Assembly: GCF_002075285.3 (NCBI RefSeq) | Contig: NZ_CP021983.2 | Location: forward strand, 3,750,001 to 3,782,000 | Direction of reading: 5' to 3' | From: Halomicronema hongdechloris C2206 | GTDB lineage: Bacteria; Cyanobacteriota; Cyanobacteriia; Phormidesmidales; Phormidesmidaceae | Length of the DNA stretch: 32,000 nt | Shown: one piece after another, positions 1,238 through 23,934 of the stretch | How positions within the stretch are numbered: the first letter of the stretch is position 1 | Layout: every line of letters starts with the position of its first letter | Made by a program: the position numbers and the translations under genes | The notes under the pieces: model-generated | Seen by the model: only the letters and a program-made list of their open reading frames with translations | The model's database searches: none | What the model was told of the DNA's origin: nothing

Positions 1238-1327
1238 GCGGTATCCCCATACCACGTTAAGATTCACCATAATCCTATCAACCGTTGAGGAGGGAGAAGT
1301 CATGATGGAAAGCGTTAGGTACTTGAC

Positions 1328-1657
1328 ATGATTCCTTTCAGCCAAATTCAAGCCTTTAGTCAACAGATCGCTGAAAGATTTGAACCAGAGCGAATTATTT
1401 TGTTTGGATCTTATGCCTGTGGAGAACCAAATAAAAATTCCGATGTTGATTTACTGGTGATTTTGCCCTTTGAAGAATTACCTGTGCACAAGGCCATTGA
1501 AATTCGGCAACGCGTTCCTGCCACTTTTCCGCTAGATCTTATTGCCAGAACTCCTGAGCAAATTCAACAGCGTTTGGAGATGGGAGATTTTTTCATTCAA
1601 GACATCTTGAACAATGGTCAGGTTCTCTATGAAGCCCATCATTCAAGAATGGATTAA
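1328..1657 (+). CDS. Nucleotidyltransferase-domain protein (MNT-type antitoxin of an MNT/HEPN pair)
   Basis: The 109-aa ORF has the classic minimal nucleotidyltransferase motif LFGSYACGEPNKNSDVDLLVI (GS-x9-DxD). It overlaps the start of a HEPN gene by 29 nt. Confidence 0.85.
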   Translation: MIPFSQIQAFSQQIAERFEPERIILFGSYACGEPNKNSDVDLLVILPFEELPVHKAIEIRQRVPATFPLDLIARTPEQIQQRLEMGDFFIQDILNNGQVLYEAHHSRMD

Positions 1658-1720
1658 CAAGGCCGAAGCCGATTTTGCAACGGCCCAGCGTGAATCACAA
1701 GTCACCCAAACACCTAACTA
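1629..1720 (+). pseudogene. HEPN-domain toxin gene, 5' fragment, cut off by the IS630 insertion
   Basis: The ATG at 1629 gives MKPIIQEWINKAEADFATAQRESQVTQTPNY. Reading stops being HEPN-like exactly at the IS end (1721). The frame continues at 2868. Confidence 0.7.
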
Positions 1721-1737
1721 TAGCAATCCCAGTTGAT

Positions 1738-2274
1738 TTATGAACAAGGTGAATATTCTTCTATTTTAGAAAAATCGAACTTTTGATGATCTATAAAGAA
1801 CTCAAACAGATACTTTACAGCGGGGAAAGAACGACACAACCTCCAAAATCTTCTCAATGAATTTTTGGCTTGTAACCAAACATCTTCCACTGGATTTTGT
1901 TCTGGTGAATTGGGTGCAAATAGAATACATTTGAATTGCCATTCTGTCTCTTCCTTCCCATGATTGACTGTAGCTAAAAAATCTTTGATCTCTTGTGACT
2001 TATGATAACTAGCGCCATCCCAAATTAATGCGATTTGCTTCCCAGGATTTTGTTCCTGCAAGTACTTCATAAAAGCAACTGTATTCTCTCCATTCCCTTT
2101 CTCGTAAGGATGCAAAATAAATTCTTTTGTTTGATAGTTTAATGCGCCATAATATGTTTGCCTGATTCTCTCGTTTGTAATAGGGATTTCGATTCGCATA
2201 TCTGTCTTGCCCCAGACATATCCACAAACATCACCCCAAAGGAGATGACACTCATCCAAAAAAAGTACAATCAA
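1738..2274 (-). CDS. IS630-family transposase, OrfB (DDE catalytic part), reached by a -1 frameshift from OrfA
   Basis: The DDE triad context is visible: LFLDECH, IWDGASYHKS and NSPEQNPVEDVW. The OrfB frame is open upstream to the A9 run and reads QKKREEIQGFIRQNQFKIESGELIVLFLDECH, which is -1 relative to OrfA. Confidence 0.8.
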   Translation of the reverse strand: MIVLFLDECHLLWGDVCGYVWGKTDMRIEIPITNERIRQTYYGALNYQTKEFILHPYEKGNGENTVAFMKYLQEQNPGKQIALIWDGASYHKSQEIKDFLATVNHGKEETEWQFKCILFAPNSPEQNPVEDVWLQAKNSLRRFWRLCRSFPAVKYLFEFFIDHQKFDFSKIEEYSPCS

Positions 2275-2855
2275 TTCCCCAGACTCAATTTTGAACTGGT
2301 TTTGACGGATAAATCCTTGGATTTCTTCTCTTTTTTTTTGACTAGAGCTGGATCAGATTTCGGGTTGGTTTTTTGAGATTTCTTCCAACTAATACCTGCT
2401 TCCGAAAAAAGTGTATAGTAGCTTTGCTTAGACTTGTAAATCACATCATAATGTTCATCTAAATATGAAACTAATTCATCAAAGTTCCAGTAGTTTCTGG
2501 TTCTCAGCCACGAGATAATTTCTGTACGATCATCTGGGGTTAGGTAACTTTTTGATCCTTGGTAGCCGAGTTTAATACCTTCAATGCCTTGTGCTTCGAA
2601 TCTGTTCTTCCAATATGTAATAAAAGACTTGTTTATTCCCAGAAATTTGGTAATCTTAAAATATGGCTCACCCTCCAATGCCATTTTTACAGCCAATGCT
2701 CGCTTAAGCTCTCTTGAATCAGGATTACTACTTATAAAGTCTGATAGAATAGCACGATTATCTACTTTTTGTTGGTGTTCTAATTGAAAACTATTCATGA
2801 GTACAACTGTATTGACAGCTTGATGATATTTATATACTACCCATTCTAAACTCAT
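2271..2855 (-). CDS. IS630-family transposase, OrfA (HTH DNA-binding part)
   Basis: The 194-aa ORF has helix-turn-helix regions typical of IS630/Tc1-mariner transposase N-termini (KITKFLGINKSFITYWKNRFEAQGIEGI). It ends just after an A9 run (plus-strand T9 at 2331-2339). An alternative start MNSFQ is at 2798. Confidence 0.8.
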   Translation of the reverse strand: MSLEWVVYKYHQAVNTVVLMNSFQLEHQQKVDNRAILSDFISSNPDSRELKRALAVKMALEGEPYFKITKFLGINKSFITYWKNRFEAQGIEGIKLGYQGSKSYLTPDDRTEIISWLRTRNYWNFDELVSYLDEHYDVIYKSKQSYYTLFSEAGISWKKSQKTNPKSDPALVKKKEKKSKDLSVKTSSKLSLGN

Positions 2856-2867
2856 TTAGGGTTGCTA

Positions 2868-3188
2868 TATGATGCGGTTTGCTTTCATAGCCAGCAGTGC
2901 ATAGAGAAATATCTAAAAGCTTGCTTACAAGAGGCTAATATTGCGTTTAGCAAAACCCATGATCTCGCTTCACTCTTGAATTTGCTTCTACCTATCAAAC
3001 CTGACTGGACTGGCTTGCGCCCCACTCTAGATGCTTTGACTGTCTATGCTGTGGAGTTCCGGTATCCCGGCATGGCCGCAACTCGGGAGATTGCCTACCA
3101 AGCCCTGCAAGATTGCATTCGGGTCCGGCAGATTTTGAGGCAGCATTTAGATTCGATCGACACCACAGATGAACCACAGGGCTCTTGA
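2868..3188 (+). pseudogene. HEPN-domain toxin gene, 3' fragment
   Basis: YDAVCFHSQQCIEKYLKACL...VEFRYPG...A matches the HEPN core. It joins in frame to the 5' fragment at 1720 once the IS is removed. Confidence 0.8.
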
Positions 3189-3338
3189 TATTGCTATAGC
3201 AGGGAGAGGTGTTTAACTTTTCGAGACGCGATATACCCAGACAAGTGCTACACGCAATTGCGGGGCGGGGCGGTCCCAACCCTCAAGCAGTCCCAATGTA
3301 GGCAGACCTCTGGCGGCCAATTCCCCAATCAGGTCAGA

Positions 3339-3525
3339 GCGGTGGATGCTGCCCCCCAGCAGCAGCACAGCAAACAGCAGCAGGGTGATCACCTCCGGCA
3401 GTAGGACCTCTAGGCCGCCCCCCTTGAGAATGAGGCTGCGGGCAATGGTGACATAGTGACGCAGCGGATTCAGCCAGGAAAGGCTGCGGGGGCCTGCTCT
3501 CGATGGGTGCGATCGCACCATTGGC
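3339..3525 (-). pseudogene. ABC-2 type transporter permease, 3'-terminal remnant (copy 2, frameshifted)
   Basis: It encodes GAIAPIESRPPQ, then after a frame change SLSWLNPLRHYVTIARSLILKGGGLEVLLPEVITLLLFAVLLLGGSIHR. It has the same 5' boundary as copy 1 (ggtgcgatcgcacc versus ggtgcgagcgtcgcacc). It starts immediately after the response-regulator stop codon. Confidence 0.6.
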
Positions 3526-4327: not shown

Positions 4328-6205
4328 ATGGCTGCCTCTACGTCTCCTGCCCCCAACTTCTTAGCGATGCTGACCCAGCAGGTACGGCAGCGGTTTCGGG
4401 GCACTGAGCTGGCTGCAGTCACCATTCGCAGCACCCTGCGTCAGGGGGAACTCCTGGTCCTATTAGATCGGCCTGCAGCGGTCGAGCTGCCTCAGGCTAC
4501 CCTGCTGACTCGACTACAGCAGGCTGTGCAAGACGTGCTGGAAGCCGAAGCGTTGCCGGTGACGATAGCAGCCCCAGACCAGGCCTTGCCGGTGCGACTC
4601 TATCTGCGGCAGCAGGGAGAGGCAAAACCCTACGCCAGCCAGAGATTTCACTGGAGTCCTGATGCGGCCTTGAGCGAGTTGGTCCAACCTACCGAGTCAG
4701 CAGCGGCAGAGACGGCGATTGAGGAGCCCTCGGTTGCTCCAGAGGCGGCGGCGGCGGCCACAGCGGCTGAACCGGCAGATGCCCCCGCGGCTGCAGAAGC
4801 TGCAGAAGCTGCGGCGGTCAGCGCCCCAGCTCCAGAAATATCCCCGCCAGAGCCATCTGAGGCAGCTGCTGATTCCAGCTCAGAACCGACTGCCCAGACA
4901 CCGCCCTGGCGTTGGTATGGTCTGGCGGCAGCGGGGTTGGTGCTGGTGGGCACCCTGGCCTATGGCCTCAGTCGCCCTTGTGTGGTGGGCGGATGCGCCC
5001 GCCTATCCCAAGCCGAGACCCTGGCCGATGATGCTCTGGCCCCGTTGGCGCAAAACCCGGGTCCGGCGGAGATCTTGCAGGCCCAGGCTGACCTAGACCA
5101 AGCCATGGCTCTGTTACAGCCAATCCCGCGTTGGTCTCCCCACTATGGGGCGGCCCAGGATCAGTTGGCCGAGTTTCAAGCCCCCTGGCAGGCCCTGGAT
5201 TGGATCATTCAAGCCCAACAGAAGGCCACCGAGGCGGCTCAGAAGAGTCAGAATCCGCCCCATCCAGTGCAACGCTGGGTAGAGGTGAGCATTCTCTGGC
5301 GACAGGCGATTAATTACCTAGAACAGGTGGCCCCGGACAGTCCGTTGGCGGAGTTGGCGGCGGATAAACTGAGGGAGTATCGCCGCAACCACGCCACCAT
5401 TCAAGGCCGCATCGACACGGAAGAGGCGGCCCAGGCCAATTTGAATGCGGCCCTGGAGAGTGCCGAATTGGCCAACCATCACACGGAGACCTCCCAGTCT
5501 CTGGGGGCGGTGCAACTGGCTGAGCGGGAATGGCAGAATGCCCTGCGCTCTCTGCGTTTAATTCCTCAGGGAACACAGGCCTACAGCGAGGCCCAACCCC
5601 TGCTGAGCCGCTATGAGCAGCAGTTGAGCCAGATTCGCGATCGCATCGCCCAAGAACAACTGGCCGACCAGGGCTATCGCCAGGCCATGGAAGCGGCCCA
5701 GCAGGCCCGCAGCTATGAGCAACAGCATCAGTGGACCCTGGCCGTCACCTCCTGGGAGCGAGCCGTTGCTGAAGCTCAGGCCGTGCCCAACAGCAGCTCC
5801 CTGGCCGAGGATGGCAGCAGCCTGGTGGCCCAGTATCGCCAAGCCCTGACCCAGGCCCGAGGGCAACTGGCCCGGGCCGTGGCCCTGCGGCAAATGGAAG
5901 CCGACCTGGCCCGCCTCTGTGCTGGGTCTCCAGCCCCCTGCCAATACAGCACCGACCAGAACCAAGTGCGGCTGATCCTGGCCCAGGGCTATGACCGGGT
6001 GATCTCCCAGACCATCACCCCGCCCGCCAACCGAGTGGATACGGGGGTATCTGCCGCAACCATTGCCGCTGGCCAGACCCTGATGGAGCAGATCATCAGC
6101 CTGGGCAACCAAAGCCAGCAGCCCATCGATCTCTATGACGCGGAGGAAGGGTTCATCGCCCGCTATCGCCCAGACCTGGGCGGGTTTGTGAAAAATCAGG
6201 GATAG
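4328..6205 (+). CDS. Hypothetical membrane-anchored protein with an Ala/Pro/Glu-rich linker and a long helical extracytoplasmic region
   Basis: The 625-aa ORF has a globular N-terminal region of about 110 aa, a low-complexity AAEAPE linker, and one predicted TM helix (WRWYGLAAAGLVLVGTLAYGL). About 400 aa of Q/A/E-rich helical repeats follow. It is divergent from the response regulator. I recognised no family. Confidence 0.55.
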   Translation: MAASTSPAPNFLAMLTQQVRQRFRGTELAAVTIRSTLRQGELLVLLDRPAAVELPQATLLTRLQQAVQDVLEAEALPVTIAAPDQALPVRLYLRQQGEAKPYASQRFHWSPDAALSELVQPTESAAAETAIEEPSVAPEAAAAATAAEPADAPAAAEAAEAAAVSAPAPEISPPEPSEAAADSSSEPTAQTPPWRWYGLAAAGLVLVGTLAYGLSRPCVVGGCARLSQAETLADDALAPLAQNPGPAEILQAQADLDQAMALLQPIPRWSPHYGAAQDQLAEFQAPWQALDWIIQAQQKATEAAQKSQNPPHPVQRWVEVSILWRQAINYLEQVAPDSPLAELAADKLREYRRNHATIQGRIDTEEAAQANLNAALESAELANHHTETSQSLGAVQLAEREWQNALRSLRLIPQGTQAYSEAQPLLSRYEQQLSQIRDRIAQEQLADQGYRQAMEAAQQARSYEQQHQWTLAVTSWERAVAEAQAVPNSSSLAEDGSSLVAQYRQALTQARGQLARAVALRQMEADLARLCAGSPAPCQYSTDQNQVRLILAQGYDRVISQTITPPANRVDTGVSAATIAAGQTLMEQIISLGNQSQQPIDLYDAEEGFIARYRPDLGGFVKNQG

Positions 6206-10897: not shown

Positions 10898-12631
10898 TTA
10901 AAACCGGGGCACATCTTCCAGCACCTGCACTTGAATGACCTGATTGGGCTCAATGGTAATGGCCTGGGGCGACGCAGCCACGGTGGTAGCCGCCCCCAGG
11001 ACTGCCCCGCCGATGAGTCCCAGGCCGCCGAAGCCAGACAGTACAGTCGTGGCTAGGGCGCCAATGCCGGAATTGACCGCCACATTGCTACCGGAGATCT
11101 GGGGACTGCCCACTAACAGGCCAGAGACCGCCGACAACGGCAGGTTACGGGTACCGATGGCCAAGGTCTGGGTAACGAAACGATAGCTGCCACCGTGGGG
11201 TTCGAAGCGACCAATCACCTGACTGCCAGTCGGGGCCAATACCGCCCCTGTGTGAGGATCCCGCAGGTCACTGTCTAATAACAAGACGTCGTACCACGGA
11301 TCGCTCTGGTTGAGTTCCAGGCGCTGGCTGGCCGGATAGCGCAGGGTCAAAACCGTCCCCGCTGGAATCGCCACATCCTCGGGAACAGCAGTCGCCTGGG
11401 CAATGGCTGGGGCCTCGGCAGTTGTTGCTGGAAGCGGTTGGCCGAAGGGCACGGGCGTGGCGGCGGTCGTCGCTGCCGGCGGCGATGAGGGCGGCGGCGG
11501 TGTGCCCACGGCAGGCGTGGCTGTCGCTGTGGGGGCCTCAATAAACGGCGGGGCGGTCACCGTCGCATCGTCCTCGGGGGGAGCAGAAGCCGCGGTCGAC
11601 TCTGCCGCCGGGGTTGGCCGGGGCGTAGGCTCAGGGACAGCGGCTTCTGTGGCCCCTGGTGTGGGCTCTGGCACCTCGATGGATGCATCACTGGTTGTGA
11701 CGGGTGTCTCGGCTGGCGCCGTCTGCTCGACTGGCTCACGGGACTCCAGGGGAGGCACCCTGACTTGGGTTGGCGCTGCCGCAGACTCATCGATTGATGG
11801 CACGCGGACTGGGGCTGTAGCTCCCCCATCTAGGCTGAAGGGGTCGACAGGTAGGCTATCGCTGTTGGCCTCAGAGCGGCTCTCGGTGGGCAACCGTAAA
11901 CTGGCCGCCGAGGTGCTGACATCATCGACACCTGGACGGGAGCTGTTGGGGGCTGAGGTCTCCGCCGCAGAGGATCCATCCCCGGGGTCAGAAGATAGCG
12001 TCTCTGCTGGTGCCGTCGGGGTCTCACCAACGGGGTCTGCAGTAGCTGGGGCCGGCTCTGGCTCTGGGGCCGCTTCCGGTGCTGGGGTCGGCTCTAGGGA
12101 ATCACTAGGGGCAGTATCTGCAGGTGTCGGCGAGGGAATGGCTGGCTGCGAAGACGGCTGACGGGCAATGGCGCTCGAGTCTGCCAGTAATGGGGTCAGG
12201 GTCCAACGGGTCTGCTCCCCGCGAGGCACCGAGGTGAGTTGGGCATGGCGGGGATCGAGGACGGTGCCGGGGGCAAACTCAATGACGATGCGGCTGGAGT
12301 TGTCGTCAAACTGAGCCGCCCGCACGGAACGAATGGGGCCGTCATCGTATTGCTGCACCCCAGGTTGGCTCAGCTCAGTCTGAGGGATATCGAGCACCAG
12401 CCGTGCCGGTTCCGCCAACAGGGAATAGCGGGGTGTAATCCCACTGGGCAGGGTGAGCCGTAATTGGCGACTGCTGGGATCGAAGCTCCAGGTCACCGAT
12501 GCGGCTGCCTGCCCCGGCAATACCACAATCAGGGGGGCCGCCGTTGCGATCGCAAGCCCTAAGGGCAAACCGCCGCCCCCGAGAAGCCAGGTAAGCAGCC
12601 AGAGACTACTGTGCCGTGCCGCATGGGTCAT
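10898..12631 (-). CDS. AMIN-domain envelope protein with a long Pro/Ala/Thr/Glu-rich linker
   Basis: A signal-like N-terminus is followed by an AMIN-type block (LRLTLPSGITPRYSLLAEPARLVLDIPQTEL...IRSVRAAQFDDNSSRIVIEF). Next come about 270 aa of low complexity and a conserved-looking C-terminal beta-rich domain. Confidence 0.7.
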   Translation of the reverse strand: MTHAARHSSLWLLTWLLGGGGLPLGLAIATAAPLIVVLPGQAAASVTWSFDPSSRQLRLTLPSGITPRYSLLAEPARLVLDIPQTELSQPGVQQYDDGPIRSVRAAQFDDNSSRIVIEFAPGTVLDPRHAQLTSVPRGEQTRWTLTPLLADSSAIARQPSSQPAIPSPTPADTAPSDSLEPTPAPEAAPEPEPAPATADPVGETPTAPAETLSSDPGDGSSAAETSAPNSSRPGVDDVSTSAASLRLPTESRSEANSDSLPVDPFSLDGGATAPVRVPSIDESAAAPTQVRVPPLESREPVEQTAPAETPVTTSDASIEVPEPTPGATEAAVPEPTPRPTPAAESTAASAPPEDDATVTAPPFIEAPTATATPAVGTPPPPSSPPAATTAATPVPFGQPLPATTAEAPAIAQATAVPEDVAIPAGTVLTLRYPASQRLELNQSDPWYDVLLLDSDLRDPHTGAVLAPTGSQVIGRFEPHGGSYRFVTQTLAIGTRNLPLSAVSGLLVGSPQISGSNVAVNSGIGALATTVLSGFGGLGLIGGAVLGAATTVAASPQAITIEPNQVIQVQVLEDVPRF

Positions 12632-12836
12632 GATGGTACTCCCGGGATAGTCAATTCCCTGTGATCTCGCCTACAGGATACGTCCAACCGCCGCACTTGC
12701 GTCCCGCTGCCAGGTCTTTTTAGCCAATTTTGCCGGGGAAACGGGATTTTTTTATATTTGTTAATGATACTCACATCCTGTCCGTCAGGGACCCGCTATA
12801 GTTCTGTACTCTGAAAGAGGCATCCATATTCCCCCT

Positions 12837-12880
12837 TGACGAATGACCTGATGAATGACCTGATGAATGACCTGATGAAT
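12837..12880. repeat. 12-bp tandem repeat, about 3.7 copies (TGATGAATGACC)
   Basis: The copies read tgacgaatgacc / tgatgaatgacc / tgatgaatgacc / tgatgaat. The array lies directly upstream of the AGGAG Shine-Dalgarno (12883-12887) of the thioredoxin-fold gene. It is full of TGA codons on the plus strand. Confidence 0.9.
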
Positions 12881-12894
12881 TAGGAGAACATGCC

Positions 12895-13476
12895 ATGGCC
12901 ATGGTTGAGTCCACCATGCTGGAGTTGGGTACCCCAGCCCCAGCCTTTGCCTTACCCGATGTGGTATCGGGGCAGACCATCACCCTAGACGACGTTGCCA
13001 AGGACAAAGCGGCCCTATTGGTGATGTTCATCTGCCAGCACTGTCCCTTCGTCCAGCACGTCAAGCAAGAGCTGGCCCGTTTCGGCCATGACTATGGCGA
13101 TCGGGTGGGCATCGTCGCCATTAGTGCCAACAATGTCGACACTCATCCCCAAGACGCGCCAGACTATCTCAAGGCCATGGCCGAGAGCCTAGGCTTTACC
13201 TTCCCCTTCTGCTACGACGAAAGCCAGGCCGTGGCCAAAGCCTACACCGCCGCCTGCACCCCAGATTTCTTCCTCTTCGATGGCAATCGCCGCCTGGTGT
13301 ATCGCGGTCAGCTCGACGATAGCCGCCCCAGCAATGGCGTCCCGGTTACTGGTAAAGATCTACGGGCCGCTCTGGAGACCACCCTCAAGGGGGAGACGGT
13401 GCCAGCGGTGCAAAAGCCCAGCGTCGGCTGCAACATCAAGTGGAAACCCGGTAACGAACCGCCCTATTTCGGCTAA
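12895..13476 (+). CDS. Thioredoxin-fold thiol-disulfide oxidoreductase (AhpC/TSA-like, CxxC)
   Basis: FICQHCPFV supplies the CxxC motif. TPDFFLFD and YRGQLDDSRP are typical of this thioredoxin-like family. The SD AGGAG lies 7 nt upstream. Confidence 0.85.
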   Translation: MAMVESTMLELGTPAPAFALPDVVSGQTITLDDVAKDKAALLVMFICQHCPFVQHVKQELARFGHDYGDRVGIVAISANNVDTHPQDAPDYLKAMAESLGFTFPFCYDESQAVAKAYTAACTPDFFLFDGNRRLVYRGQLDDSRPSNGVPVTGKDLRAALETTLKGETVPAVQKPSVGCNIKWKPGNEPPYFG

Positions 13477-13483
13477 CCCGCCG

Positions 13484-14128
13484 CTAGCTGCCGTCGATGC
13501 TGAGGGGATCCTCGCCGCCATTCAGATAGACCATGGAGTTAATGATCTGCACCGCCTCGTCAGGGGTGATGTCTTGGCAGGCGGCCTGTCCCTGCAGGCG
13601 CTCGTTGATATAGGCAGCTCCCACCAAGCGATAGAGCCCTGCTTCTCCCCTTAACCAATCACTCCTCAGTTGAGATGCTGCCGGAGCCTGGCTGTAATGC
13701 AGTTGATACTCTCCGTTGGCAAACTGGGGCGGCTGTAACGGCAGCGTTTGGCTAGCCCCCGCGGGATTGTTGCCCGCGGGGGCAAATTCGATGGCAAAGC
13801 AGCGATCACGGTTATCCCGATAGATCAGTAAATAGTAGGGCGGTGCCGGCCGACTCTCCACCGCCACCAAAGACATCTCTGCCGGTAGGCTAGTGGGCAC
13901 GGCAATGGGTACCCCCAAGCTATCCAGTTGCTGCTTGACGGCAGGAGAGAGCTGGGCCAGAAACGCCCCCTGGGGTGGCGGTGGCGGTGCAGCAGTAGTG
14001 GGTGGCGCAGTTTCGGAGGAGAGCTCTGCCTGCGGAGTCGCCTCACAGCCCGTCAGCATCAACACAATTGCCGCCGTCATGGCCCCGACCAAGGGCCCTT
14101 GCTTATGGCAACGGCATGACTTTAGCAT
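13484..14128 (-). CDS. Hypothetical lipoprotein
   Basis: A lipobox-like IVLMLTGC follows a hydrophobic signal and is followed by a Pro-rich linker. I recognised no family. Confidence 0.55.
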   Translation of the reverse strand: MLKSCRCHKQGPLVGAMTAAIVLMLTGCEATPQAELSSETAPPTTAAPPPPPQGAFLAQLSPAVKQQLDSLGVPIAVPTSLPAEMSLVAVESRPAPPYYLLIYRDNRDRCFAIEFAPAGNNPAGASQTLPLQPPQFANGEYQLHYSQAPAASQLRSDWLRGEAGLYRLVGAAYINERLQGQAACQDITPDEAVQIINSMVYLNGGEDPLSIDGS

Positions 14129-14226
14129 CGGTAGGAACTGATATCCGACAGGCTGTGCTCCTAGGATACCTAGGGAAGACTCAGGAGTTTCAGGGAGCGC
14201 TTATGCACGTTAGGCAATCCATAAGG

Positions 14227-15900
14227 TTAGCGATAGAAGCTGACCTTGTGGGGCTTGCCGCTGTGAGGGGTATTGCGATTGACCAGGTCCGATAGGGTGC
14301 TGGTGGTCTGGATGATCTCCCAGCCCACCGGGGATAAGGTCTGTTCATTAAACACGTTCTCTGCCAGCAAGGGATTGGTCAAGGCCTGAGAGAAGGCATC
14401 AATGCCCACCAGGCGACCAATCAGGGGAGACAGGGCCGAATTGTCCCGTACATCTTCGGCATAGAGCCCCACGTAAAACTCGACCTTGTCGACCTCACCA
14501 TATAACTCTTGCAACAGCATCTGGGTGGTGGCATCGCCAGTGATCTGGTTGAAGCGGGTTACCCTGGGATAGCCGCACATCTCCCGATAGTCGTTATAGC
14601 TAGCCATCTGGGCCGCTCGCCCCAAGCGGATGCTAGCTAGTTCCGTAGGCGCCACCAGAAAGTCATCGGTATTGAACAGGCCAATGCGACTAGAGGGTTG
14701 AGACGACGCCTCCTCAAATAATGCTCCTAAGCCCCGATCTATCAGCAGTTGATTGTTCCACAGGCTCGATTCCATTGCCACCTGCTTGTTGTCATAGAGA
14801 AAGCTATCGGGTAAGGCACTGTGCCAGCGATAGACCAGACTAAATTCCATCGTCATCCAGTTGGTGCGATACCACTTTTCGTGGGAAAAGGCGGGGGGAT
14901 CGACAAAGAAGTTGAAGTGGTAGGGCGTGATGTGATTGATGTATTCCTCCACCACAATTTTCATGATCTCGACCATGAGAATATTTCTGGCCGTTTGGAA
15001 GAGCCGTTCGTCATCCCAAGCGGGATAGTGCTGCGCCAGCACCTCACACAGGCGATTGTGTTCCCGTAAACAGAGCACATTGAGCATGACATAACCAATC
15101 TGGATATTGGCCCGCTCGACGCCCATGGCAAATAACTTGGCCTTCAGCGGCCAGTCGAGTCTCTTCTCATCGTTAAGGGGCTCATACAGGCCCTTAAATT
15201 CTGGTTTGACGCTGCCCTGCTTCGGATCTTCGTAGTAAAACAGGGGATATTCTTCGCCATTGAGCCGCTGGCTTTTGAGTTTCCCGCCCTGGAAGGCTCT
15301 GAGTTTGTGGGTTGCTTCTCGAGTCAGCCCATAGACCTGACAGAGATCGATGTGGTGGTTGGAGGTATTCTTCAACCAGTCATCGCGGTCCTTGCGCAGG
15401 AATCCATCCGTAAACCACTGCACCCAGTAGGGAAACAGCAGGGTTGACTTTTCTGAGGGAATGGTGATGGCATTGCCCTCGGCATCTCGCCGCTTCTTAA
15501 ACAAGACCGCCAGATCTTCCAGCTCAGGCAGATTCCCGTCCCGGTTGAACTCTGGATCGGGGGGCAGGTGGCGTCCGGTGTAGCTGCGATCGATGAGGGA
15601 GTCCCAAGAGGTATAGGTATCCGTCTTTTTAGGCAGTCCTTGGTCTGGCACGTACCCCGGCAAGGATTGAAACTGCTCATCCGCTGTATCTGGGACGAAC
15701 GGATCCAGGGTCATCAAGCTAAAGGCATAGGGCCGAGTCGGCGCTTTATAGATGGCACTGTTGATCAAAACCTTATTCACCTTGCGGTTGAGAAAGCGAA
15801 TCTGCTGAATCAACGCCCACAGGACCCTAAAGTTTGTTAAGAGAAATGTCTGCAGTTTGTTGCCGAAGCCATCCCTAGATGTGTCCCGTCTTGGCGCCAT
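14227..15900 (-). CDS. Haem peroxidase-superfamily fatty-acid dioxygenase (cyclooxygenase / alpha-dioxygenase / linoleate diol synthase-like)
   Basis: Three blocks support the call:
- HHIDLCQVYG (peroxidase/COX-type block)
- EFSLVYRWHSALPD (codons at 14821-14832), which carries the Tyr-Arg-Trp-His motif; this supplies the catalytic Tyr and proximal His in fungal LDS/Ppo and related dioxygenases
- NDYREMCG and VEFYVGLYAE, C-terminal blocks like those of COX/DOX
The SD GGGAGG lies upstream of the ATG. Confidence 0.8.
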   Translation of the reverse strand: MAPRRDTSRDGFGNKLQTFLLTNFRVLWALIQQIRFLNRKVNKVLINSAIYKAPTRPYAFSLMTLDPFVPDTADEQFQSLPGYVPDQGLPKKTDTYTSWDSLIDRSYTGRHLPPDPEFNRDGNLPELEDLAVLFKKRRDAEGNAITIPSEKSTLLFPYWVQWFTDGFLRKDRDDWLKNTSNHHIDLCQVYGLTREATHKLRAFQGGKLKSQRLNGEEYPLFYYEDPKQGSVKPEFKGLYEPLNDEKRLDWPLKAKLFAMGVERANIQIGYVMLNVLCLREHNRLCEVLAQHYPAWDDERLFQTARNILMVEIMKIVVEEYINHITPYHFNFFVDPPAFSHEKWYRTNWMTMEFSLVYRWHSALPDSFLYDNKQVAMESSLWNNQLLIDRGLGALFEEASSQPSSRIGLFNTDDFLVAPTELASIRLGRAAQMASYNDYREMCGYPRVTRFNQITGDATTQMLLQELYGEVDKVEFYVGLYAEDVRDNSALSPLIGRLVGIDAFSQALTNPLLAENVFNEQTLSPVGWEIIQTTSTLSDLVNRNTPHSGKPHKVSFYR

Positions 15901-16040
15901 TGCATTCAGCCTCCCTCAATCAGTGCCTACAAGTGTCTACACGTTCTAACCAGAAGTCCAGCCCCCGAACCGCAGAGAGGGTGATGACTTCAGCCCGAGG
16001 CGGCCCATAGCAGGATCCTCGATCTATCATTCCGGACACT

Positions 16041-16128
16041 GACGCCCTCAGAGGACATTTGAAAACTCGACTGAAAGTCCTGCAGGGTAAGCGTTTTAGA
16101 GCGTATGGCTCTGTTAGCCAGAATCCAG
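16041..16128. repeat. 88-bp intergenic repeat, copy 1 (upstream of the dioxygenase gene)
   Basis: 81 of 88 positions are identical to 17645-17732, in the same orientation. It lies in the spacer between the P450 and dioxygenase genes. Confidence 0.9.
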
Positions 16129-16194
16129 TCTGGAGCAAGGTTGCAGGGTACTTTCCAAATATCCTCTCAGGTAGCTTCCTATAGCTGTCCGACA

Positions 16195-17607
16195 TCAACG
16201 GTCATAGGCGATGACAAACCGTTCTGGGAAAGGCGTGCCCTGAAAGTCAATCTTCCCAGCGTCTCCTGGCAACAAGCGTACACCCGGCCGCAATAATACC
16301 TGCTTGATCGTCTCGGGGATTTGCATCATGCCGACATACTTGCCTAAGCAAGTATGGTGACCATAGCCAAAGTGCATGTAGTGGTAAGGAAGCCGATCGA
16401 TGGAAAAGGTCTCAGGCTGGGGCAGCTCATGGGCATCAAACCCAGCCGAAGCCGTACAGGCAAACACCAAACTATTGGCAGGAATGGGCGTCTCTCTGGG
16501 CGTGCCGGCTGCTAGGACGTAATCTTGCTCACAGAGGCGAAACACCAGAGGGTTGATGGGATTGAAGCGGAGCGCTTCCCACACATAGCGATCGAACGTC
16601 TCATCATCGTTGGCCTGGGCAGCCTGCAGTGCCTCCTGCAAGATAGTGGGGGTCAAGAGAATTTGCTCTAATGCTTGCACAATCGCCTGGGATGTAGTCT
16701 CTACCGCACCGATCAACAGCCCAGCCATGTTTGTCACGATTCTCTTATCGTCAAATAAGATATCGTCGGCAAACTGCGTTTTGACCAATCGCGTAAACAC
16801 GTCATCCATGGCATTAGGCTCAGGTGGCGTACTCGATGAAGCAGATCTATTACCTGAGAACAGCTTATCCAGTAGGGCCCTCAGCAAGTCTCCAAAGGAC
16901 AAATTTTGGGGCGAGGTCTGGGTGACCTGAGCTTGTTTCTCTGCCAACAACTGGGTCAGGTAGGTCGTCATTTCTCGACCCGCTTGCACTGCTGCCTCAT
17001 GGATTTGAGGATCATTGGGTAGGTTTTTAAAGAAGTTTGTCTGGGTAGCTCGGGACCAACGATACATACTCTCTAAATCTGGCCCCGGAAAGCCAAAGTA
17101 GTCTCCACAGACGCGGACAGGGACATAGCGCCCTAACTGGCTAACCACTTCAATCTCACCAGCCTGGGCATGGTTGTCTAGGGAGGTTTTTGCAATGTCA
17201 CCGGCCATTTTTCGCACGGCAGGCAAGTCCTCTGGCTGCAACATGGTTTTCATGATGGACTTTTCTCGCCAGTTGATTTCCGTGTTATCTCTGGCCAGCA
17301 TGAAAGGCCCCTCCACCGCTGCATCCATCTTGGAGGCATAGAGTTTGACGGTGAAGACATTTTCCCGAGACAGGACTTCTTGGACGTCAGAAAACAATGT
17401 GACTAGAGTGAATTTTGGAGTCACAAAAATTGGTCGATTTTCACGAAGTTCTTGGAAGAATGGTCGCCATTCCGTCCGAATCCACTGGTTTACCAGCTGT
17501 AACTTTTCAGCCAGGCGATCCATAGGAATATTATCGTACTGTTCTAAATATGACATGATAATTGGCACCTCATAAAAGGGGATATTAGCGGCAATATAAA
17601 CCATCAT
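16195..17607 (-). CDS. Cytochrome P450
   Basis: The haem-thiolate loop is FGYGHHTCLGKYVG (Cys codon at 16348-16350). The EXXR motif is in WEALRFNP. The I-helix is AGLLIGAVETTSQ. A possible alternative start, MSYLEQ, is at 17556. Confidence 0.9.
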   Translation of the reverse strand: MMVYIAANIPFYEVPIIMSYLEQYDNIPMDRLAEKLQLVNQWIRTEWRPFFQELRENRPIFVTPKFTLVTLFSDVQEVLSRENVFTVKLYASKMDAAVEGPFMLARDNTEINWREKSIMKTMLQPEDLPAVRKMAGDIAKTSLDNHAQAGEIEVVSQLGRYVPVRVCGDYFGFPGPDLESMYRWSRATQTNFFKNLPNDPQIHEAAVQAGREMTTYLTQLLAEKQAQVTQTSPQNLSFGDLLRALLDKLFSGNRSASSSTPPEPNAMDDVFTRLVKTQFADDILFDDKRIVTNMAGLLIGAVETTSQAIVQALEQILLTPTILQEALQAAQANDDETFDRYVWEALRFNPINPLVFRLCEQDYVLAAGTPRETPIPANSLVFACTASAGFDAHELPQPETFSIDRLPYHYMHFGYGHHTCLGKYVGMMQIPETIKQVLLRPGVRLLPGDAGKIDFQGTPFPERFVIAYDR

Positions 17608-17644
17608 GGCTGTTCAAGAGAAAGCCGATTCCGTGAAACTAGAT

Positions 17645-17732
17645 GTCGCCGTCAGAGGACATTTGAAAACTCGGCTGAAAGCCCTACAGGGTAAGCGTTT
17701 TAGAGCGTATGACTCTGTTGGCCAGAATCCAG
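17645..17732. repeat. 88-bp intergenic repeat, copy 2 (upstream of the P450 gene)
   Basis: See 16041-16128. It fills most of the 146-bp spacer between the NTF2-like and P450 genes. Confidence 0.9.
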
Positions 17733-17753
17733 AAATGCAGCCAGTTCCCATTA

Positions 17754-18305
17754 CTATTCACCACCGAGGATTCTGTATTCAGCTGTTTCTTGGGCAGATA
17801 GGGACTCGATAAAATCTGCGAGTTTTTTTCCTGCCTTTTTCCGGGTTGCATTTTTAACCACAGGTGTCCAGCCCAAGAAACGACCGGTTGCTCCTAGGGC
17901 CATATCTGACCACTGCCAAAAGTCCCAATCGTCATGATGGCGAATGATTTTTCCAGCTTTGAAGTCGAATTGAGCCGCAACGATATTGTGAACCTGGCGC
18001 CCTGTTTCTGAAAAGTGATAGGTTGCCTCCCAGTGAGCGATCCCGGCGTGCTCATTGGCGGCAGCATCTGTCAGGATGACCTGCAAATCCATGGCATTGC
18101 GGCAGAACATATACCACATGGCGGCAACAGCATCACCGTTTAGATCAAATAGGGCATCGGAAAAATGAATCTCGGGGTGATAGCAGCGCATCATGCCCTT
18201 GTGGTCCCGCTGGTTGAAGCAGGTATAGAAGGTTTGAATTAGAGTGACATTGGGATGCTCACGGCTCATATCGGCAGGAATAGGGTGCTGCGGGGAAGAG
18301 TTCAT
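17754..18305 (-). CDS. NTF2-like / SnoaL-like (ketosteroid isomerase fold) protein
   Basis: The 183-aa ORF has the N-terminal pattern IQTFYTCFNQRD...M..CYHPEI.FSD, followed by a W/H-rich cone-forming beta region (HWEATYHF...G). This is typical of SnoaL/NTF2 superfamily enzymes. Confidence 0.65.
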   Translation of the reverse strand: MNSSPQHPIPADMSREHPNVTLIQTFYTCFNQRDHKGMMRCYHPEIHFSDALFDLNGDAVAAMWYMFCRNAMDLQVILTDAAANEHAGIAHWEATYHFSETGRQVHNIVAAQFDFKAGKIIRHHDDWDFWQWSDMALGATGRFLGWTPVVKNATRKKAGKKLADFIESLSAQETAEYRILGGE

Positions 18306-18405
18306 AGGGGTGCAGAAGGGTGGGCGGGGTCAAATTAGACGGGATAAGCGAATGCTAGGCAACTCTGGGGCCTACTGAGAGTGCCTATCTGGATAGGAGA
18401 GGCTG

Positions 18406-19149
18406 ATGCCATTGCCAAGACCAATCCTTTATATCTTGGCCGGTCTGCCGAGCAGCGGCAAGACCACCCTATCGCAGGGGCTGGCGCGGCGAGTCCACGC
18501 AGCCCATATGCGTATCGATACCCTTGAGCAAGCCCTCAGGGATCTCTGTTCTATCGAGGTCCAGGGGGAAGGCTATGATCTGGCCTATAGAATTGCAGCT
18601 TATGCCCTAGGAGGGAGTCCTACCGTGCTACATCTCCCCATCGAAACCGAGCGATTGAGGATTCGCCGGTTTGAACCGAGCGATAGCCTGCCCTTCCTAG
18701 AATTCATGTTGGATCAGGCGTCAACCCGGTATCTGATGTTCGAGGCCAGGCAAAAGACCGAACCAGGAGCTCGAGAGCTGTTTGAGTCCGTCTGCAGTGC
18801 TTATGATTCCCCAGCGCCGATTCACGCCTATGCGATCGCAACTAAAGACTCAAATCGCTATCTCGGGTCCTGTGGATATTCCCCCTATGATGACGGCATC
18901 GTCGAGTGCTATTACAGCATCAACCGCTCCGAGTGGGGCCGCGGATTTGCCACGGAAGCGCTGATCGCCTTGGCCAGTCAATTGGCTACCCAGGTTGAGG
19001 TGCGGGCCTATTGCCATCCAGATAATGTTGCCGCCCACGCCGTCGCCCGGAAAGCAGGCTTTGTCGACCAGGGCCTTGATAGACACCGGCACTTTGGCCA
19101 TGAGGGCCGGTTGTTTGTCTGCCAGTCTGAGGCTAGCCGTCTCTTTTAG
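18406..19149 (+). CDS. Chimeric ORF: a P-loop (AAA_33/zeta-like kinase) N-terminal fragment fused in frame to a GNAT (RimJ/RimL-like) N-acetyltransferase
   Basis: Residues 1-70 carry the Walker A motif ILAGLPSSGKTTL and YDLAYRIAA, then stop resembling the kinase family. From about residue 75 the ORF is a complete GNAT (ETERLRIRRFEPSD...YAIATKD..RYLGSCGY...W.RGFATEA......VRAYCHPDNVAAHAVARKAGF). Confidence 0.7.
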   Translation: MPLPRPILYILAGLPSSGKTTLSQGLARRVHAAHMRIDTLEQALRDLCSIEVQGEGYDLAYRIAAYALGGSPTVLHLPIETERLRIRRFEPSDSLPFLEFMLDQASTRYLMFEARQKTEPGARELFESVCSAYDSPAPIHAYAIATKDSNRYLGSCGYSPYDDGIVECYYSINRSEWGRGFATEALIALASQLATQVEVRAYCHPDNVAAHAVARKAGFVDQGLDRHRHFGHEGRLFVCQSEASRLF

Positions 19150-19185
19150 ATGCCCTGTGCCGCGGCGCGAGAACTGCCCAGCAGC
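19039..19185. repeat. 147-bp direct repeat, copy 1 (GNAT 3' end plus downstream junction)
   Basis: 144 of 147 positions are identical to 23667-23813. Weaker similarity (about 80%) resumes at 19201-19250 versus 23831-23880. Confidence 0.9.
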
Positions 19186-20182
19186 GGAAAATTCAGGCTT
19201 GAGCAAACCTGAGCGGGCAACCAGACTGCAGGCGATCGCCCCAGGCCAAATACGGTTTTGCTCACCCCGGCCCCGATAAAGCCTGCCAGCATCCCCGTGA
19301 CCCGTCGCTTGGGGCCACCCCAGGCACTGAGTAAAATCGCTCCAGTGACGCCGCCAATCCCTGCGGCTGAAGCGGTACTGGCTAGAACCGTAGCACTGCC
19401 GTTGGTGCGGGCCAAGATCATGGGGTCATAGATGGCTCCGCCCAGGTCGTGAAAGAACTTAAATAGTACGCTAATTAGCAAGAGCGATGCTCCGTTCGGA
19501 GCGGCTACGCCAACGCAAGCTGGGCTGCCGCCAGACTGCTCGGAAGCCGAAGGTGAGTTTAGCCAAGCGGGTCTCAAGTTCAGGGGTCGGTTGGGGCGTG
19601 GGTTGGGGGATGCGGACATAGAGTAGGGTTGCGATGGTCAAAGACCGGCCCTAAAGGGCCATCGCAATTCCAAACGTCGCCAGATCAATCAGCAGAATCC
19701 CCATCAGCCCAATCAGCGGGTACAGGACTCGCCAGCGCCGGTCCAAAAATAGCGGAGCCATAGTGAACCGCTGAGTTCATGCTGTTGGCCCGCGTCAGCT
19801 GGTGTGGCGGCACCATCGAAGAAATCGAGGTTTGGTAGGCTAAACCTTGAATTTGTCCGAAGCCGCCATTTATGCTTGCGGCCAAATAAAGATGCCAAAT
19901 CTGTAGACTGTCTGCCAGAAAAAGAATGCCGATGCCGATGGTTGAGAGGGCTGCAATGCTGTCGCCTAACATCATCAAGTGCTTGCGATTAAAGCGATCG
20001 ACAATGAGACCGGCGACCAGCGTAATCGGAATGTGGGGCAGTTGAGAGAAAAAGCCGACCAGGGCCAGTGCCGTTGCCGAACCTGTTACCTCCCAAGCCC
20101 AAAGGGTGAGGGCAAACTCGGTCATGTAGCTGCCGATGGTTGATGCCAGTTGACCTGACCAGATTATGATGAAGGTACGCAT
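19146..20182 (-). pseudogene. MFS transporter (MFS_3/EntS-like), disrupted and 3'-truncated
   Basis: The N-terminal 150 aa are intact (MRTFIIIWSGQLASTIGSYMTEFALTLWAWE...). The frame breaks near 19720, and an in-frame stop sits inside the palindrome ggccctttagggcc (about 19651-19664). The frame breaks again around 19460-19500. The last segment ends at FPLLGSS exactly at the repeat boundary (19185), so about 130 C-terminal residues are missing. Confidence 0.7.
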
Positions 20183-20808: not shown

Positions 20809-21267
20809 CTAATCTTGGGTCGCTTCTAAAATAGATTGGGGATGAACAACTGTAATATTATCGCTATTGCTAAAATCATCTGGATTAAATGTTAATAAGT
20901 GAGTGATGGCATGAGCCTGCATAACCGCAACCAATCGAGCATCATGGACGCGTTTTCCTTGAATTTGATCGGTCGTCACTAGATTTAACCAGTAAGAAAA
21001 TATTTGCGGTGTTTCTTCAAGCTGTGGAAACTGGTTGAGAATTTGCTCAACTTCAGCACGAGTTTGTTCAACGCTCCAGCCCAGACCGTTGACATCGACT
21101 GGACGAGTTGCAACAACCCAAAACTCAATAATGTTTTGACTGGTGACAAATAATTGATGACTTTGAACTAGCAGAGTGGCAGCGGCTCTACCAGCAATCA
21201 GGTTCATCGGTGAGGTGCGGTCACTCATTCGCAGCAACACGTTGGTATCAAGAAGATAATCTGCCAT
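20809..21267 (-). CDS. PIN-domain ribonuclease toxin (VapC-like)
   Basis: YLLDTNVLLR is the first acidic motif. Its size, and the 1-nt overlap with an upstream small antitoxin gene, are typical of VapBC. Confidence 0.85.
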   Translation of the reverse strand: MADYLLDTNVLLRMSDRTSPMNLIAGRAAATLLVQSHQLFVTSQNIIEFWVVATRPVDVNGLGWSVEQTRAEVEQILNQFPQLEETPQIFSYWLNLVTTDQIQGKRVHDARLVAVMQAHAITHLLTFNPDDFSNSDNITVVHPQSILEATQD

Positions 21268-21533
21268 TAGTCATACATTGACTCTCGTCTCAAAGCTTCA
21301 TCGGGTAAGTTGGGGCCGTCCTTATGGCTTTGTACCCATTGTGTTAATCGTTCAGCCCGTTCTTGGGGGGTGGCGGTTGCCCAAAACGGCTGCTCCGAGG
21401 AAACGGGAGACAGGATTAAACGATTTTCATCGCCTACTTCAAGTTGGAAACGAGTATTGGGCTGAATGGCACGCAGAATCTCTTGGGGAATTTGTAGGGT
21501 GCCAGTCTCGCTGATTTCGACGATTACAGCCAT
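21267..21533 (-). CDS. AbrB/SpoVT-type antitoxin (VapB-like)
   Basis: This 88-aa ORF lies immediately upstream of, and overlapping, the PIN gene. The swapped-hairpin-like N-terminus (GTLQIPQEILRAIQPNTRFQLEV..ENRLILSP) supports the call. Confidence 0.7.
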   Translation of the reverse strand: MAVIVEISETGTLQIPQEILRAIQPNTRFQLEVGDENRLILSPVSSEQPFWATATPQERAERLTQWVQSHKDGPNLPDEALRRESMYD

Positions 21534-21585: not shown

Positions 21586-21990
21586 TTATCTCTCATCCCC
21601 TGATGGCGGAACTGGGGAAATTTTGGCTATGCCACTCGCTTGGAGCACTTCAGGAAACTGCTTCCAGGGGACATCGTCATCATCGCTGTCGTGATAAAGT
21701 TTGCCAAACCAGAGCAGGGCTTCGGCGCTTTCGGCGAGGGGCAGATCGGTGAACAGGTAGGTGGGCCGATTGGGGGCAGAGACTGAAACCACACAGGCTC
21801 TGCTGCACATCCACAGGCAATCGACGGGTTGAATGGTGATGGGTGAGTCTTGGGATTGGAGAGTGTTGAGCTGCTCTAGCAGTTGAGCGCCCTGGGAGGG
21901 TTTCATGCGTTTGTGAGCGGCATCGTTGCAAGACTGGCAGACAAATAAATTTGGGTTTGACATTGCTCTAGAAGACGAATAATGACTCAA
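21586..21990 (-). CDS. DUF1636 family protein (thioredoxin-like metal/[2Fe-2S]-binding)
   Basis: LFVCQSC....G..LL..L......I.IQPVDCLWMCSRACVVSVSAPNRPTYLFTDLP....AEALL.F...Y......VPWKQFPEVLQ is a close match, from memory, to the DUF1636 consensus. Confidence 0.75.
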   Translation of the reverse strand: MSHYSSSRAMSNPNLFVCQSCNDAAHKRMKPSQGAQLLEQLNTLQSQDSPITIQPVDCLWMCSRACVVSVSAPNRPTYLFTDLPLAESAEALLWFGKLYHDSDDDDVPWKQFPEVLQASGIAKISPVPPSGDER

Positions 21991-23646: not shown

Positions 23647-23666
23647 CCCCTGAACGGCATTGCCAT

Positions 23667-23813
23667 GCCGTCGCCCGGAAAGCAGGCTTTGTCGACCAGG
23701 GCCTTGATAGACACCGGCACTTTGGCCATGGGGGCGGGTTGTTTGTCTGCCAGTCTGAGGCTAGCCGTCTCTTTTAGATGCCCTGTGCCGCGGCGCGAGA
23801 ACTGCCCAGGAGC
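23667..23813. repeat. 147-bp direct repeat, copy 2 (orphan GNAT 3' end plus junction, followed by a diverged MFS remnant to about 23880)
   Basis: See 19039-19185. Here no GNAT gene body lies upstream, so this copy is a remnant. Confidence 0.9.
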
Positions 23814-23934
23814 AGCAAGTTGAGCGATGAGCAAAACTGAGCCGGCACCCAGACGAAGGGCGATCGCCCCATACCAGATCTCGATGATCGCCCCTAGTCT
23901 CATGAGGCGCTTGTTGCCGTTTTATGATGAAAAG

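Follow-up and report, generated by a model that had tools for sequence, protein, structure and literature searches.

In the literature searched, the only characterised bacterial system built on a dioxygenase of the cyclooxygenase (COX) type is that of Nostoc punctiforme, in which the linoleate 10S-dioxygenase (10S-DOX) Npun_R5469 (B2J5P4) is paired with a catalase-related 10S-hydroperoxide lyase (Brash et al. 2014, as cited in PMC13049297 and PMC9579011); the product of the Nostoc dioxygenase is the 10S-hydroperoxide. Fungi are seen as the specialists in coupling such a dioxygenase to a cytochrome P450, and animals offer a parallel with COX and CYP5A/CYP8A. According to the speculation of a 2026 review, the fungal CYP partner descends from an ancient bacterial P450 that had been fused to a member of the COX superfamily (PMC13049297). 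We analysed a stretch of 32,000 nucleotides of the cyanobacterium Halomicronema hongdechloris C2206 (contig NZ_CP021983.2, positions 3,750,001 to 3,782,000; hereafter 'the window'), which contains three minus-strand open reading frames (ORFs) in the order NTF2-fold protein, P450, COX-like haem dioxygenase (DOX). Judged from its sequences, the trio looks like a bacterial route to oxidised fatty acids paralleling the fungal dioxygenase-P450 enzymes. The literature searched, the coverage of which was incomplete, yielded no bacterial DOX with a P450, be it a separate protein or a fused one, and an earlier description is possible. The features of the cluster are as follows, in window coordinates.

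17754..18305, minus strand: SnoaL_2/NTF2-fold protein XM38_035800, first gene of the cluster; 183 residues; Pfam SnoaL_2 (PF12680), E 2.3e-14.
17644..17732, no strand assigned: 89-nt direct repeat, copy B, in the NTF2-P450 spacer; 92% identical to copy A.
16195..17556, minus strand: cytochrome P450 CYP1159A2 (ASC72620.1); about 453 residues from MSYLEQYD; Pfam p450, E 1.1e-17.
16690..16707, minus strand: AVETTS, I-helix of the P450 with the Glu-Thr acid-alcohol pair.
16342..16371, minus strand: FGYGHHTCLG, Cys pocket of the P450 (bacterial FGxGxHxCxG).
16040..16128, no strand assigned: 89-nt direct repeat, copy A, in the P450-DOX spacer; 92% identical to copy B.
14227..15900, minus strand: COX-like haem fatty-acid dioxygenase XM38_035770; 557 residues; Pfam An_peroxidase (PF03098), E 1.5e-49.
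15400..15426, minus strand: WVQWFTDGF stretch of the DOX, which includes FTDGF.
15400..15414, minus strand: FTDGF, distal haem helix of the DOX, residues 163-167; Asp165 stands where COX has His207.
14821..14832, minus strand: YRWH, with DOX Tyr357 (catalytic) and His360 (proximal haem ligand), equivalent to COX Tyr385 and His388 (COX YHWH).

The three products match XM38_035770, CYP1159A2 (ASC72620.1) and XM38_035800, each at 100% identity. An earlier description of the window, made from its letters without database searches (the sequence-only reading), had proposed these three same-strand genes; the ORFs lie where it placed them, and Pfam assigns them to SnoaL_2, p450 and An_peroxidase. It was also right about the YRWH motif, whose position is exact and which aligns to COX YHWH, and about the Glu-Thr pair of AVETTS. 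The longest P450 ORF spans 16195-17607 (470 residues); the true start is probably 17556, since all homologues begin at MSYLEQYD, and a GAGG motif lies upstream of it. The NTF2-P450 spacer is about 200 bp long and the P450-DOX spacer 294 bp.

The H. hongdechloris DOX is a new member of a known family. In HMMER searches, its closest solved relatives were COX-1 and COX-2 (ovine, mouse; E ~6e-62 over residues 93-545); plant alpha-dioxygenase came far behind (E ~1e-11), and lactoperoxidase was likewise behind. The HMMER alignment pairs Gln161 with COX Gln203, Asp165 with His207, Tyr320 with Tyr348, Tyr357 with Tyr385 and His360 with His388. The EEY at residues 318-320 aligns to COX, and the central Tyr (COX Tyr348) is kept in all clades. 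Among 13 DOX sequences sampled from every clade, YRWH was invariant and QWFTD(G/S)F was present in all 13. The replacement of the distal His by Asp, suggested by eye in the sequence-only reading, is thus supported by the HMMER alignment. It is a family-wide published trait, not one peculiar to the H. hongdechloris enzyme: the Nostoc punctiforme 10S-DOX has F143-t-d-s-F and COX has F205-t-h-q-F (PMC13049297).

This DOX is 64 to 79% identical to cyanobacterial homologues, and the family is widespread in cyanobacteria. Identity to Nostoc sequences, including that of N. punctiforme NIES-2108 (locus L068), was 64 to 65% over the full length. The substrate-site motifs listed in PMC13049297 are near-identical in the H. 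hongdechloris and Nostoc enzymes, namely EEYINHITPYHF and GRLVGIDAFSQA, the changes being a Val for Nostoc Ile483 and a Tyr kept at the COX Tyr504 position, which is Phe in Nostoc. By sequence, the protein is a member of the cyanobacterial 10S-DOX family; oxygenation of oleate and linoleate at C10 with S configuration is only predicted. In a neighbour-joining tree, it groups with the DOX of two metagenome contigs (L081/L082, described below) and with four loci of Leptothermofonsia, Nodosilinea and Phormidesmis (L001-L004) that have no partner gene nearby. Members of this clade (window, L081, L001, L003) share an insert of about 15 residues in the N-terminal membrane-binding region (window 15600-15700, residues ~67-100). 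At the same site, another P450-linked DOX clade (L112/L115/L117) has a deletion of about 30 residues.

The usual neighbourhood of this family was established on the 80 best DOX loci, taking one genome per species. A catalase-related gene (395 residues) was found downstream of the DOX in 64 of these 80 loci, at a median distance of 189 bp, and a gene for a Tle1-like phospholipase lay 82 bp upstream in 48 of them; in a few, a class-3 lipase gene replaced the Tle1-like gene. Examples of such lipase-type cassettes are found in L044 (4903-5922) and L018 (4891-5853 and 7774-8961). The usual context is therefore the published Nostoc tandem plus an upstream lipase gene, which suggests a three-step cassette of lipase, dioxygenase and lyase. 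A P450 orthologue was present within 6 kb in only one of the 80 loci (L050), and the NTF2 gene in none. The H. hongdechloris cluster lacks the upstream Tle1-like lipase gene, and no tblastn match to the catalase-related gene was obtained anywhere in the window. The idea that a P450 stands in place of the catalase-related partner of Nostoc agrees with the content of the window, with the qualification that the P450 partner is a minority arrangement among DOX loci.

The P450 link nevertheless recurs. A metagenome scan using the P450 as query returned 23 loci. The complete order SnoaL_2, P450, An_peroxidase was found in two metagenome contigs (L081/L082), with the P450 76% and the DOX 73% identical to those of the window, and the order NTF2, P450, DOX in Cyanobacteria bacterium RU_5_0 (L117), with 67% identity for the NTF2 protein and 80% for the P450. 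The three-gene order, the conservation of which the sequence-only reading had proposed to check, is thus present in two other lineages. The DOX of L117 falls in a different clade from that of the window. A P450 directly followed by an An_peroxidase gene, without the NTF2 gene, was seen in L112 and L115/L116. In L121, the An_peroxidase gene is followed, 42 bp on, by a P450 of 600 residues with a C-terminal NTF2-like DUF6841 domain, and further members of this P450-DUF6841 fusion cluster exist. No homology was detectable between the window NTF2 protein and this fused domain, and we take this to mean that the fold was recruited twice.

The same P450 family is also associated with lipoxygenases (LOX). 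In Nostoc, a Tle1-like lipase, a P450, a DUF1304 protein and a lipoxygenase are encoded in this order (L113/L114, 4531-9835; L122, 4939-10179), and L089 (3391-8695) matches this layout by ORF sizes only. Some of the Nostoc LOX-linked P450s (575 residues) carry an uncharacterised N-terminal extension of about 140 residues. At L050, the order is P450, DUF1304, lipoxygenase, DOX, catalase-related gene. Altogether the P450 link spans three DOX clades. Of six P450-linked loci, five have the P450 as an alternative to the catalase-related gene. None of the partner loci examined showed a redox gene linked to the P450.

Fusion proteins were also obtained when the DOX served as query in an exhaustive HMMER search, which returned many long relatives; their domains were resolved by Pfam and BLAST. 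P0273 is a single P450-DOX chain of 979 residues, encoded by a continuous ORF in a contig of an NCBI metagenome-assembled genome (L123, 447-3386). In this chain, the P450 part matches the full length of the window P450 at 56% identity (E 4e-167) and has the identical I-helix, LLIGAVETTSQAIVQALEQI, and the DOX part is 50 to 55% identical. Two other P450-DOX fusions were found (P0285, 43%; P0338, 40%), as well as a DOX-P450 fusion with the reverse domain order (P0345). In P0312 and P0355, the DOX is fused to a P450 with the Cys loop GHICPGKD, which we take to recall the CYP74 loop. Eight DOX fusions contain a catalase-related domain, and one is a patatin-DOX fusion. The fusions come from several independent samples, and none of the P450-DOX fusions contains a reductase or ferredoxin domain. 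DOX fusions contain a catalase-related domain or a P450, never both, which places the P450 in the architectural slot of a known hydroperoxide-consuming enzyme. Taken together, recurrence and fusions make a functional coupling of the three genes very probable. Among other fused relatives (P0274, P0275/P0277/P0289 and others), the partner is a patatin-like phospholipase, or there are catalase-related domains on either side of the DOX, and some have N-terminal extensions of 450 to 860 residues with no Pfam match where scanned.

The name CYP1159A2 (ASC72620.1) was given to this exact P450 in the supplement of PMC7014017; no paper mentioning a function for CYP1159 was found in the literature searched. 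The protein has the ExxR motif and the canonical Cys pocket FGYGHHTCLG. Across the family, 123 of 124 members keep the acid-alcohol Glu and 109 of 124 keep the Thr, the fused P0273 and P0285 among them. The AlphaFold2 (AF2) model (pLDDT 91.1) is nearest in fold to CYP134A1, CYP109, P450BioI and CYP142, at 17 to 21% identity; by sequence, its best PDB matches are to hydroxylases and epoxidases. All the hallmarks of class I bacterial P450s (FGxGxHxCxG, ExxR, acid-alcohol pair, P450 fold) are therefore present. In P450s of the CYP74/CYP8A/CYP5A type, the I-helix acid-alcohol pair is lost and the Cys loop is atypical. CYP1159A2 does not have this signature, AVETTS and FGYGHHTCLG being canonical and conserved, and no CYP74-type insertion was seen in the alignment of its Cys loop. 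The conserved Glu-Thr pair, if anything, argues for O2 activation. The name 'pulcherriminic acid synthase' carried by the protein at NCBI, and the cyclodipeptide identity that it implies, were rejected: TIGR04538 scores 74.5 bits against a cut-off of 500, and the name is probably wrong.

A P450 tree resolved two subclades, one LOX-linked and one DOX-linked. More distant relatives (33 to 47% identity) adjoin genes for RoxA-like di-haem cytochrome c proteins, DyP-type peroxidases or a patatin-like phospholipase (L095, 171-1946; L096, 3790-5760; L100, 3789-5873; L102, 4400-5914; L104, 7067-8665; L103, 7297-9657). Pairing with haem enzymes that use oxygen or peroxide may be habitual in the broader clade.

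Neither the scanned window ORFs of at least 150 residues nor the smaller ones scanned near the cluster include a ferredoxin or reductase gene. This absence had been noted in the sequence-only reading as fitting a P450 that rearranges hydroperoxides. The observation holds, but as an argument on mechanism it says little, because class I bacterial P450s often rely on unlinked ferredoxins. A DUF1636 gene at 21586-21990 was considered as a redox partner and discarded: unrelated genes and a distance of 3.3 kb separate it from the cluster, and the two are not conserved together.

The AF2 model of the NTF2 protein (pLDDT 93.5) shows an NTF2 cone with a C-terminal helix. Foldseek matched it to SnoaL2/AclR, limonene-1,2-epoxide hydrolase (LEH) and KSI with probability 1.00 and E ~1e-7, at 12 to 20% identity, and profile matches to NTF2 enzymes of the LEH and SnoaL2/AclR types were weak (E 0.001-0.01). 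Polar residues conserved in the family are Tyr42, His43, His91, Tyr96, Arg103, Asn107, His123 and Asp125. Orthologues at 60 to 67% identity were always located directly upstream of the P450; homologues below 50% identity showed no P450 linkage.

These results can be assembled into a single oxylipin module, in which the DOX would be followed by a hydroperoxide-isomerising P450 and then by a step involving the NTF2 protein; this is the likeliest reading, and we consider it evenly balanced between being right and wrong. In the first step, the COX-like haem DOX, probably membrane-associated, would use a Tyr357 radical to abstract a hydrogen from a C16-C18 unsaturated fatty acid, and insertion of O2 would give a fatty-acid hydroperoxide, as is expected from the characterised homologue at ~64% identity. 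With Asp in place of the distal His, we propose that the family reduces its product poorly and therefore releases the hydroperoxide. In the second step, CYP1159A2 would fill the slot of the catalase-related hydroperoxide lyase, with the hydroperoxide as its substrate, as context and fusions suggest. With its Glu-Thr pair, the enzyme would tend to break the O-O bond heterolytically and then let the oxygen rebound, an isomerisation of the diol-synthase or epoxy-alcohol-synthase type that requires no external reductant; such chemistry is favoured here over that of a lyase or allene oxide synthase (AOS) because the pair could promote heterolytic cleavage of a bound alkyl hydroperoxide. The third step is the weakest: the NTF2 protein may act on the P450 product, for example by opening or rearranging an epoxide, or may hand over the lipid.

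Several observations weigh against this scheme. CYP1159A2 has every hallmark of an ordinary class I monooxygenase dependent on O2 and ferredoxin and, to our knowledge, the P450s known to convert hydroperoxides (CYP74, CYP8A, CYP5A, fungal linoleate diol synthases (LDS) and AOS, CYP152) do not have the acid-alcohol pair. The closest relatives of the DOX (L001-L004) have no P450 within 6 kb. Conversely, NTF2-P450 pairs without a nearby DOX occur in L083-L088, one of them followed by an alpha/beta-hydrolase-like gene; the genes downstream of these pairs (261 and 370 residues) gave no PDB match, no recurrence and only a faint alpha/beta-hydrolase match in Pfam. The catalytic triad of LEH is Asp-Arg-Asp. 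In a profile alignment too weak to decide the point (E ~1e-3), Trp92 and Ala94 of the NTF2 protein stand opposite the Arg and Asp of the LEH R-x-D, and only Asp125 aligns to the LEH RDYFD segment. Finally, both spacers are long, and co-transcription of the trio is only predicted.

The class I hallmarks are evidence for a rival reading in which CYP1159A2 serves this pathway as a conventional monooxygenase, using O2 and an unlinked, for example photosynthetic, ferredoxin. Its substrate for hydroxylation or epoxidation would then be either the fatty acid itself or the compound made by the DOX, in hydroxy or hydroperoxy form, and di- or tri-oxygenated fatty acids would result. The family-wide conservation of Glu and Thr, the canonical ExxR and FGxGxHxCxG motifs, the hydroxylases and epoxidases among the best PDB matches, and the class I monooxygenases among the nearest structures, including the fatty-acid-handling CYP109A2 and P450BioI, all speak for this reading. 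It is harder to reconcile with P450-DOX fusions devoid of a reductase or ferredoxin domain, with the alternation of P450 and catalase-related partner in fusions and in linked loci, and with the lack of a linked redox gene in the loci examined, and we regard it as possible but somewhat improbable. A P450 found in the slot of the Nostoc lyase partner (PMC13049297) could also have taken over its reaction, as a homolytic hydroperoxide lyase or an AOS analogue replacing the catalase-related 10S-hydroperoxide lyase. Short-chain volatiles of the 1-octen-3-ol type or allene oxides would result, and the NTF2 protein would cyclise or hydrolyse them, as befits a fold used by cyclases and epoxide hydrolases; moreover, fungal 8R- and 9R-AOS have a Thr at the distal axial position (PMC13049297). 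This is unlikely, given that the intact acid-alcohol pair would favour heterolysis, that the Cys loop has no CYP74-type insertion, and that L050 keeps both the P450 and the catalase-related gene, which suggests non-identical roles.

Lastly, the adjacency could be incidental, the NTF2-P450 pair being a mobile module for an unrelated lipophilic substrate such as a terpenoid, a carotenoid or a cyclodipeptide. NTF2-P450 pairs do exist without a DOX, the 89-nt repeat flanks the P450 gene, the GC content at third codon positions (GC3) of the P450 (0.57) and NTF2 (0.53) genes is below that of the DOX gene (0.67), and the NCBI name points to another chemistry. That name, however, rests on the low TIGR04538 score given above, and the association was found in at least six independent contexts and three DOX clades, as well as with LOX. 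In-frame P450-DOX fusions come close to refuting an incidental adjacency, which we hold to be highly improbable. Returning to the isomerising module, a wider form of it can be put forward: CYP1159 would be a bacterial family of DOX-coupled P450s that isomerise hydroperoxides without a redox partner despite their acid-alcohol pair, and that swap partners (COX-like DOX, LOX, possibly di-haem or DyP proteins). Its P450-DOX gene pairs and fusions would be a prokaryotic counterpart, or even an ancestor, of the fungal DOX-CYP enzymes and of the animal COX-CYP5A/8A logic, with the NTF2 protein as a new oxylipin-modifying enzyme. We offer this tentatively, as a doubtful extension; if true, the NTF2 protein would yield cyanobacterial products not yet described.

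Acquisition of the cluster by transfer had been suggested from its composition. HIP1 sites are enriched in the window (16 against 0.65 expected), and the stretch 12554-18831 (~6.3 kb) is indeed free of them. A gap of at least 6,286 bp, however, occurs in 42% of random placements of 16 sites (P ~ 0.42), and was rejected as a sign of transfer. Similarly, the GC content of the cluster (0.50-0.53) is lower than that of its left neighbours (0.58-0.65), as had been remarked, the window mean being 0.544 and other stretches being lower still. The inference of transfer did not follow: the GC3 of the DOX gene is like that of the neighbours, and those of the P450 and NTF2 genes are within the range of the window ORFs (0.31-0.81). 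A mobile NTF2-P450 module is nevertheless compatible with the patchy distribution of the pair, with integrase fragments beside the cluster in L081, and with the variable-looking surroundings in H. hongdechloris, which include a split MFS gene, a toxin-antitoxin pair and an insertion sequence (IS) element. As for the 89-nt direct repeat, one plus-strand reading frame is open in both copies. No copy was found in any fetched locus, including the syntenic ones, there was no match in Rfam or to plasmids, and the fold is not significant (z-scores -0.06 to -1.97).

Next to the DOX end, a gene for a peroxiredoxin-like thioredoxin-fold protein (12895-13476) is convergent with the DOX gene, and L117 has a similar one at 4361-4996. 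A conserved link was rejected, since the window protein and the L117 AhpC share 21% identity and belong to different subfamilies; the resemblance is probably a coincidence. On the other side, 18406-19149 encodes a GNAT acetyltransferase with a P-loop kinase-like N-terminus, and an MFS_3 transporter is split into two ORFs (19146-19619 and 19685-20182), probably a pseudogene. A 217-nt direct repeat (90% identical) occurs at 19035-19251 and 23663-23879, 4.6 kb apart, its first copy overlapping the GNAT gene and the split MFS gene at their 3' ends. The right half of the window is variable and defence-island-like, with a PIN-domain toxin and its small upstream partner (20809-21533), a TIR-domain protein (24996-26369) and an eCIS_core-domain protein (27037-28989). 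At the left end, an IS630-like transposase (HTH and DDE_3 domains; 1738-2855, GC ~0.35) is bracketed by 96-nt direct repeats (1081-1176 and 3393-3488, 86% identical), and this element, spanning 1081-3488, looks like a recent insertion.

The cluster places two orphan families, the P450 family CYP1159 and an NTF2 family, in the context of a pathway, predicts new cyanobacterial oxylipins, and corrects a misleading database name. The locus and its relatives can serve to test whether hydroperoxides can be isomerised by a P450 whose acid-alcohol pair is intact. The bacterial gene pairs and natural P450-DOX fusions also allow the proposed bacterial origin of the fungal CYP partner to be tested.

Compared with the Nostoc system, the DOX belongs to the same protein family (~64% identity), with the catalytic Tyr and His, the Tyr348 equivalent, the Asp at the distal His and near-identical substrate-site motifs, and in both cases the dioxygenase is accompanied by a haem enzyme that consumes, or here would consume, the hydroperoxide. 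The H. hongdechloris locus differs in having neither the catalase-related gene nor the upstream Tle1-like lipase gene, and in having as partners a P450 and an NTF2 protein, both encoded upstream. Its DOX stands in a separate clade, with the 15-residue N-terminal insert, Tyr at COX Tyr504 and Val at Nostoc Ile483.

The likeness to fungal DOX-CYP enzymes (Ppo/LDS, AOS and epoxy-alcohol synthases (EAS)) lies in the coupling of a COX-like dioxygenase to a P450, which here takes the form of neighbouring genes and, in metagenomic relatives, of single polypeptides; the bacterial-type HxCxG Cys pocket is common to both. The fungal-like split module described in the sequence-only reading is supported by the recurrent order, pairs and fusions, with the correction that the DOX is nearest to COX and 10S-DOX, not to LDS or alpha-DOX. 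In H. hongdechloris the genes are separate, with the 294-bp spacer between P450 and DOX, and the P450 precedes the DOX, as it does in the fusions P0273, P0285 and P0338, whereas the fungal enzymes hold both in one polypeptide, with the DOX at the N-terminus. The fungal DOX stands much further from the window DOX than COX or 10S-DOX does, and 10S-DOX and 10R-DOX share 21% identity (PMC13049297). Fungal DOX keeps the distal His (AxxIthd helix), and the fungal P450 has an Asn in substrate recognition site 4 (SRS4), not an acid-alcohol pair (PMC13049297); the H. hongdechloris proteins have Asp165 for the distal His and Glu-Thr where LDS and EAS have Asn, and are accompanied by an NTF2 protein. With animal COX and CYP5A1 (thromboxane synthase) or CYP8A1 (prostacyclin synthase), the cluster shares the scheme of a COX-type peroxide passed to a separate P450. 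The window P450 differs in that its bacterial family is unrelated to theirs and has kept the acid-alcohol pair, the genes are clustered, and endoperoxide formation is not indicated for the window DOX. The NTF2 protein shares the cone fold of LEH and of SnoaL2/AclR-type enzymes, and departs from them in its own set of conserved polar residues, its extra C-terminal helix and its 12 to 20% identity. On the evidence of these comparisons, the partnership of P450 and NTF2 protein, together with the fusions, is a new form of the known theme of a dioxygenase with a haem partner.

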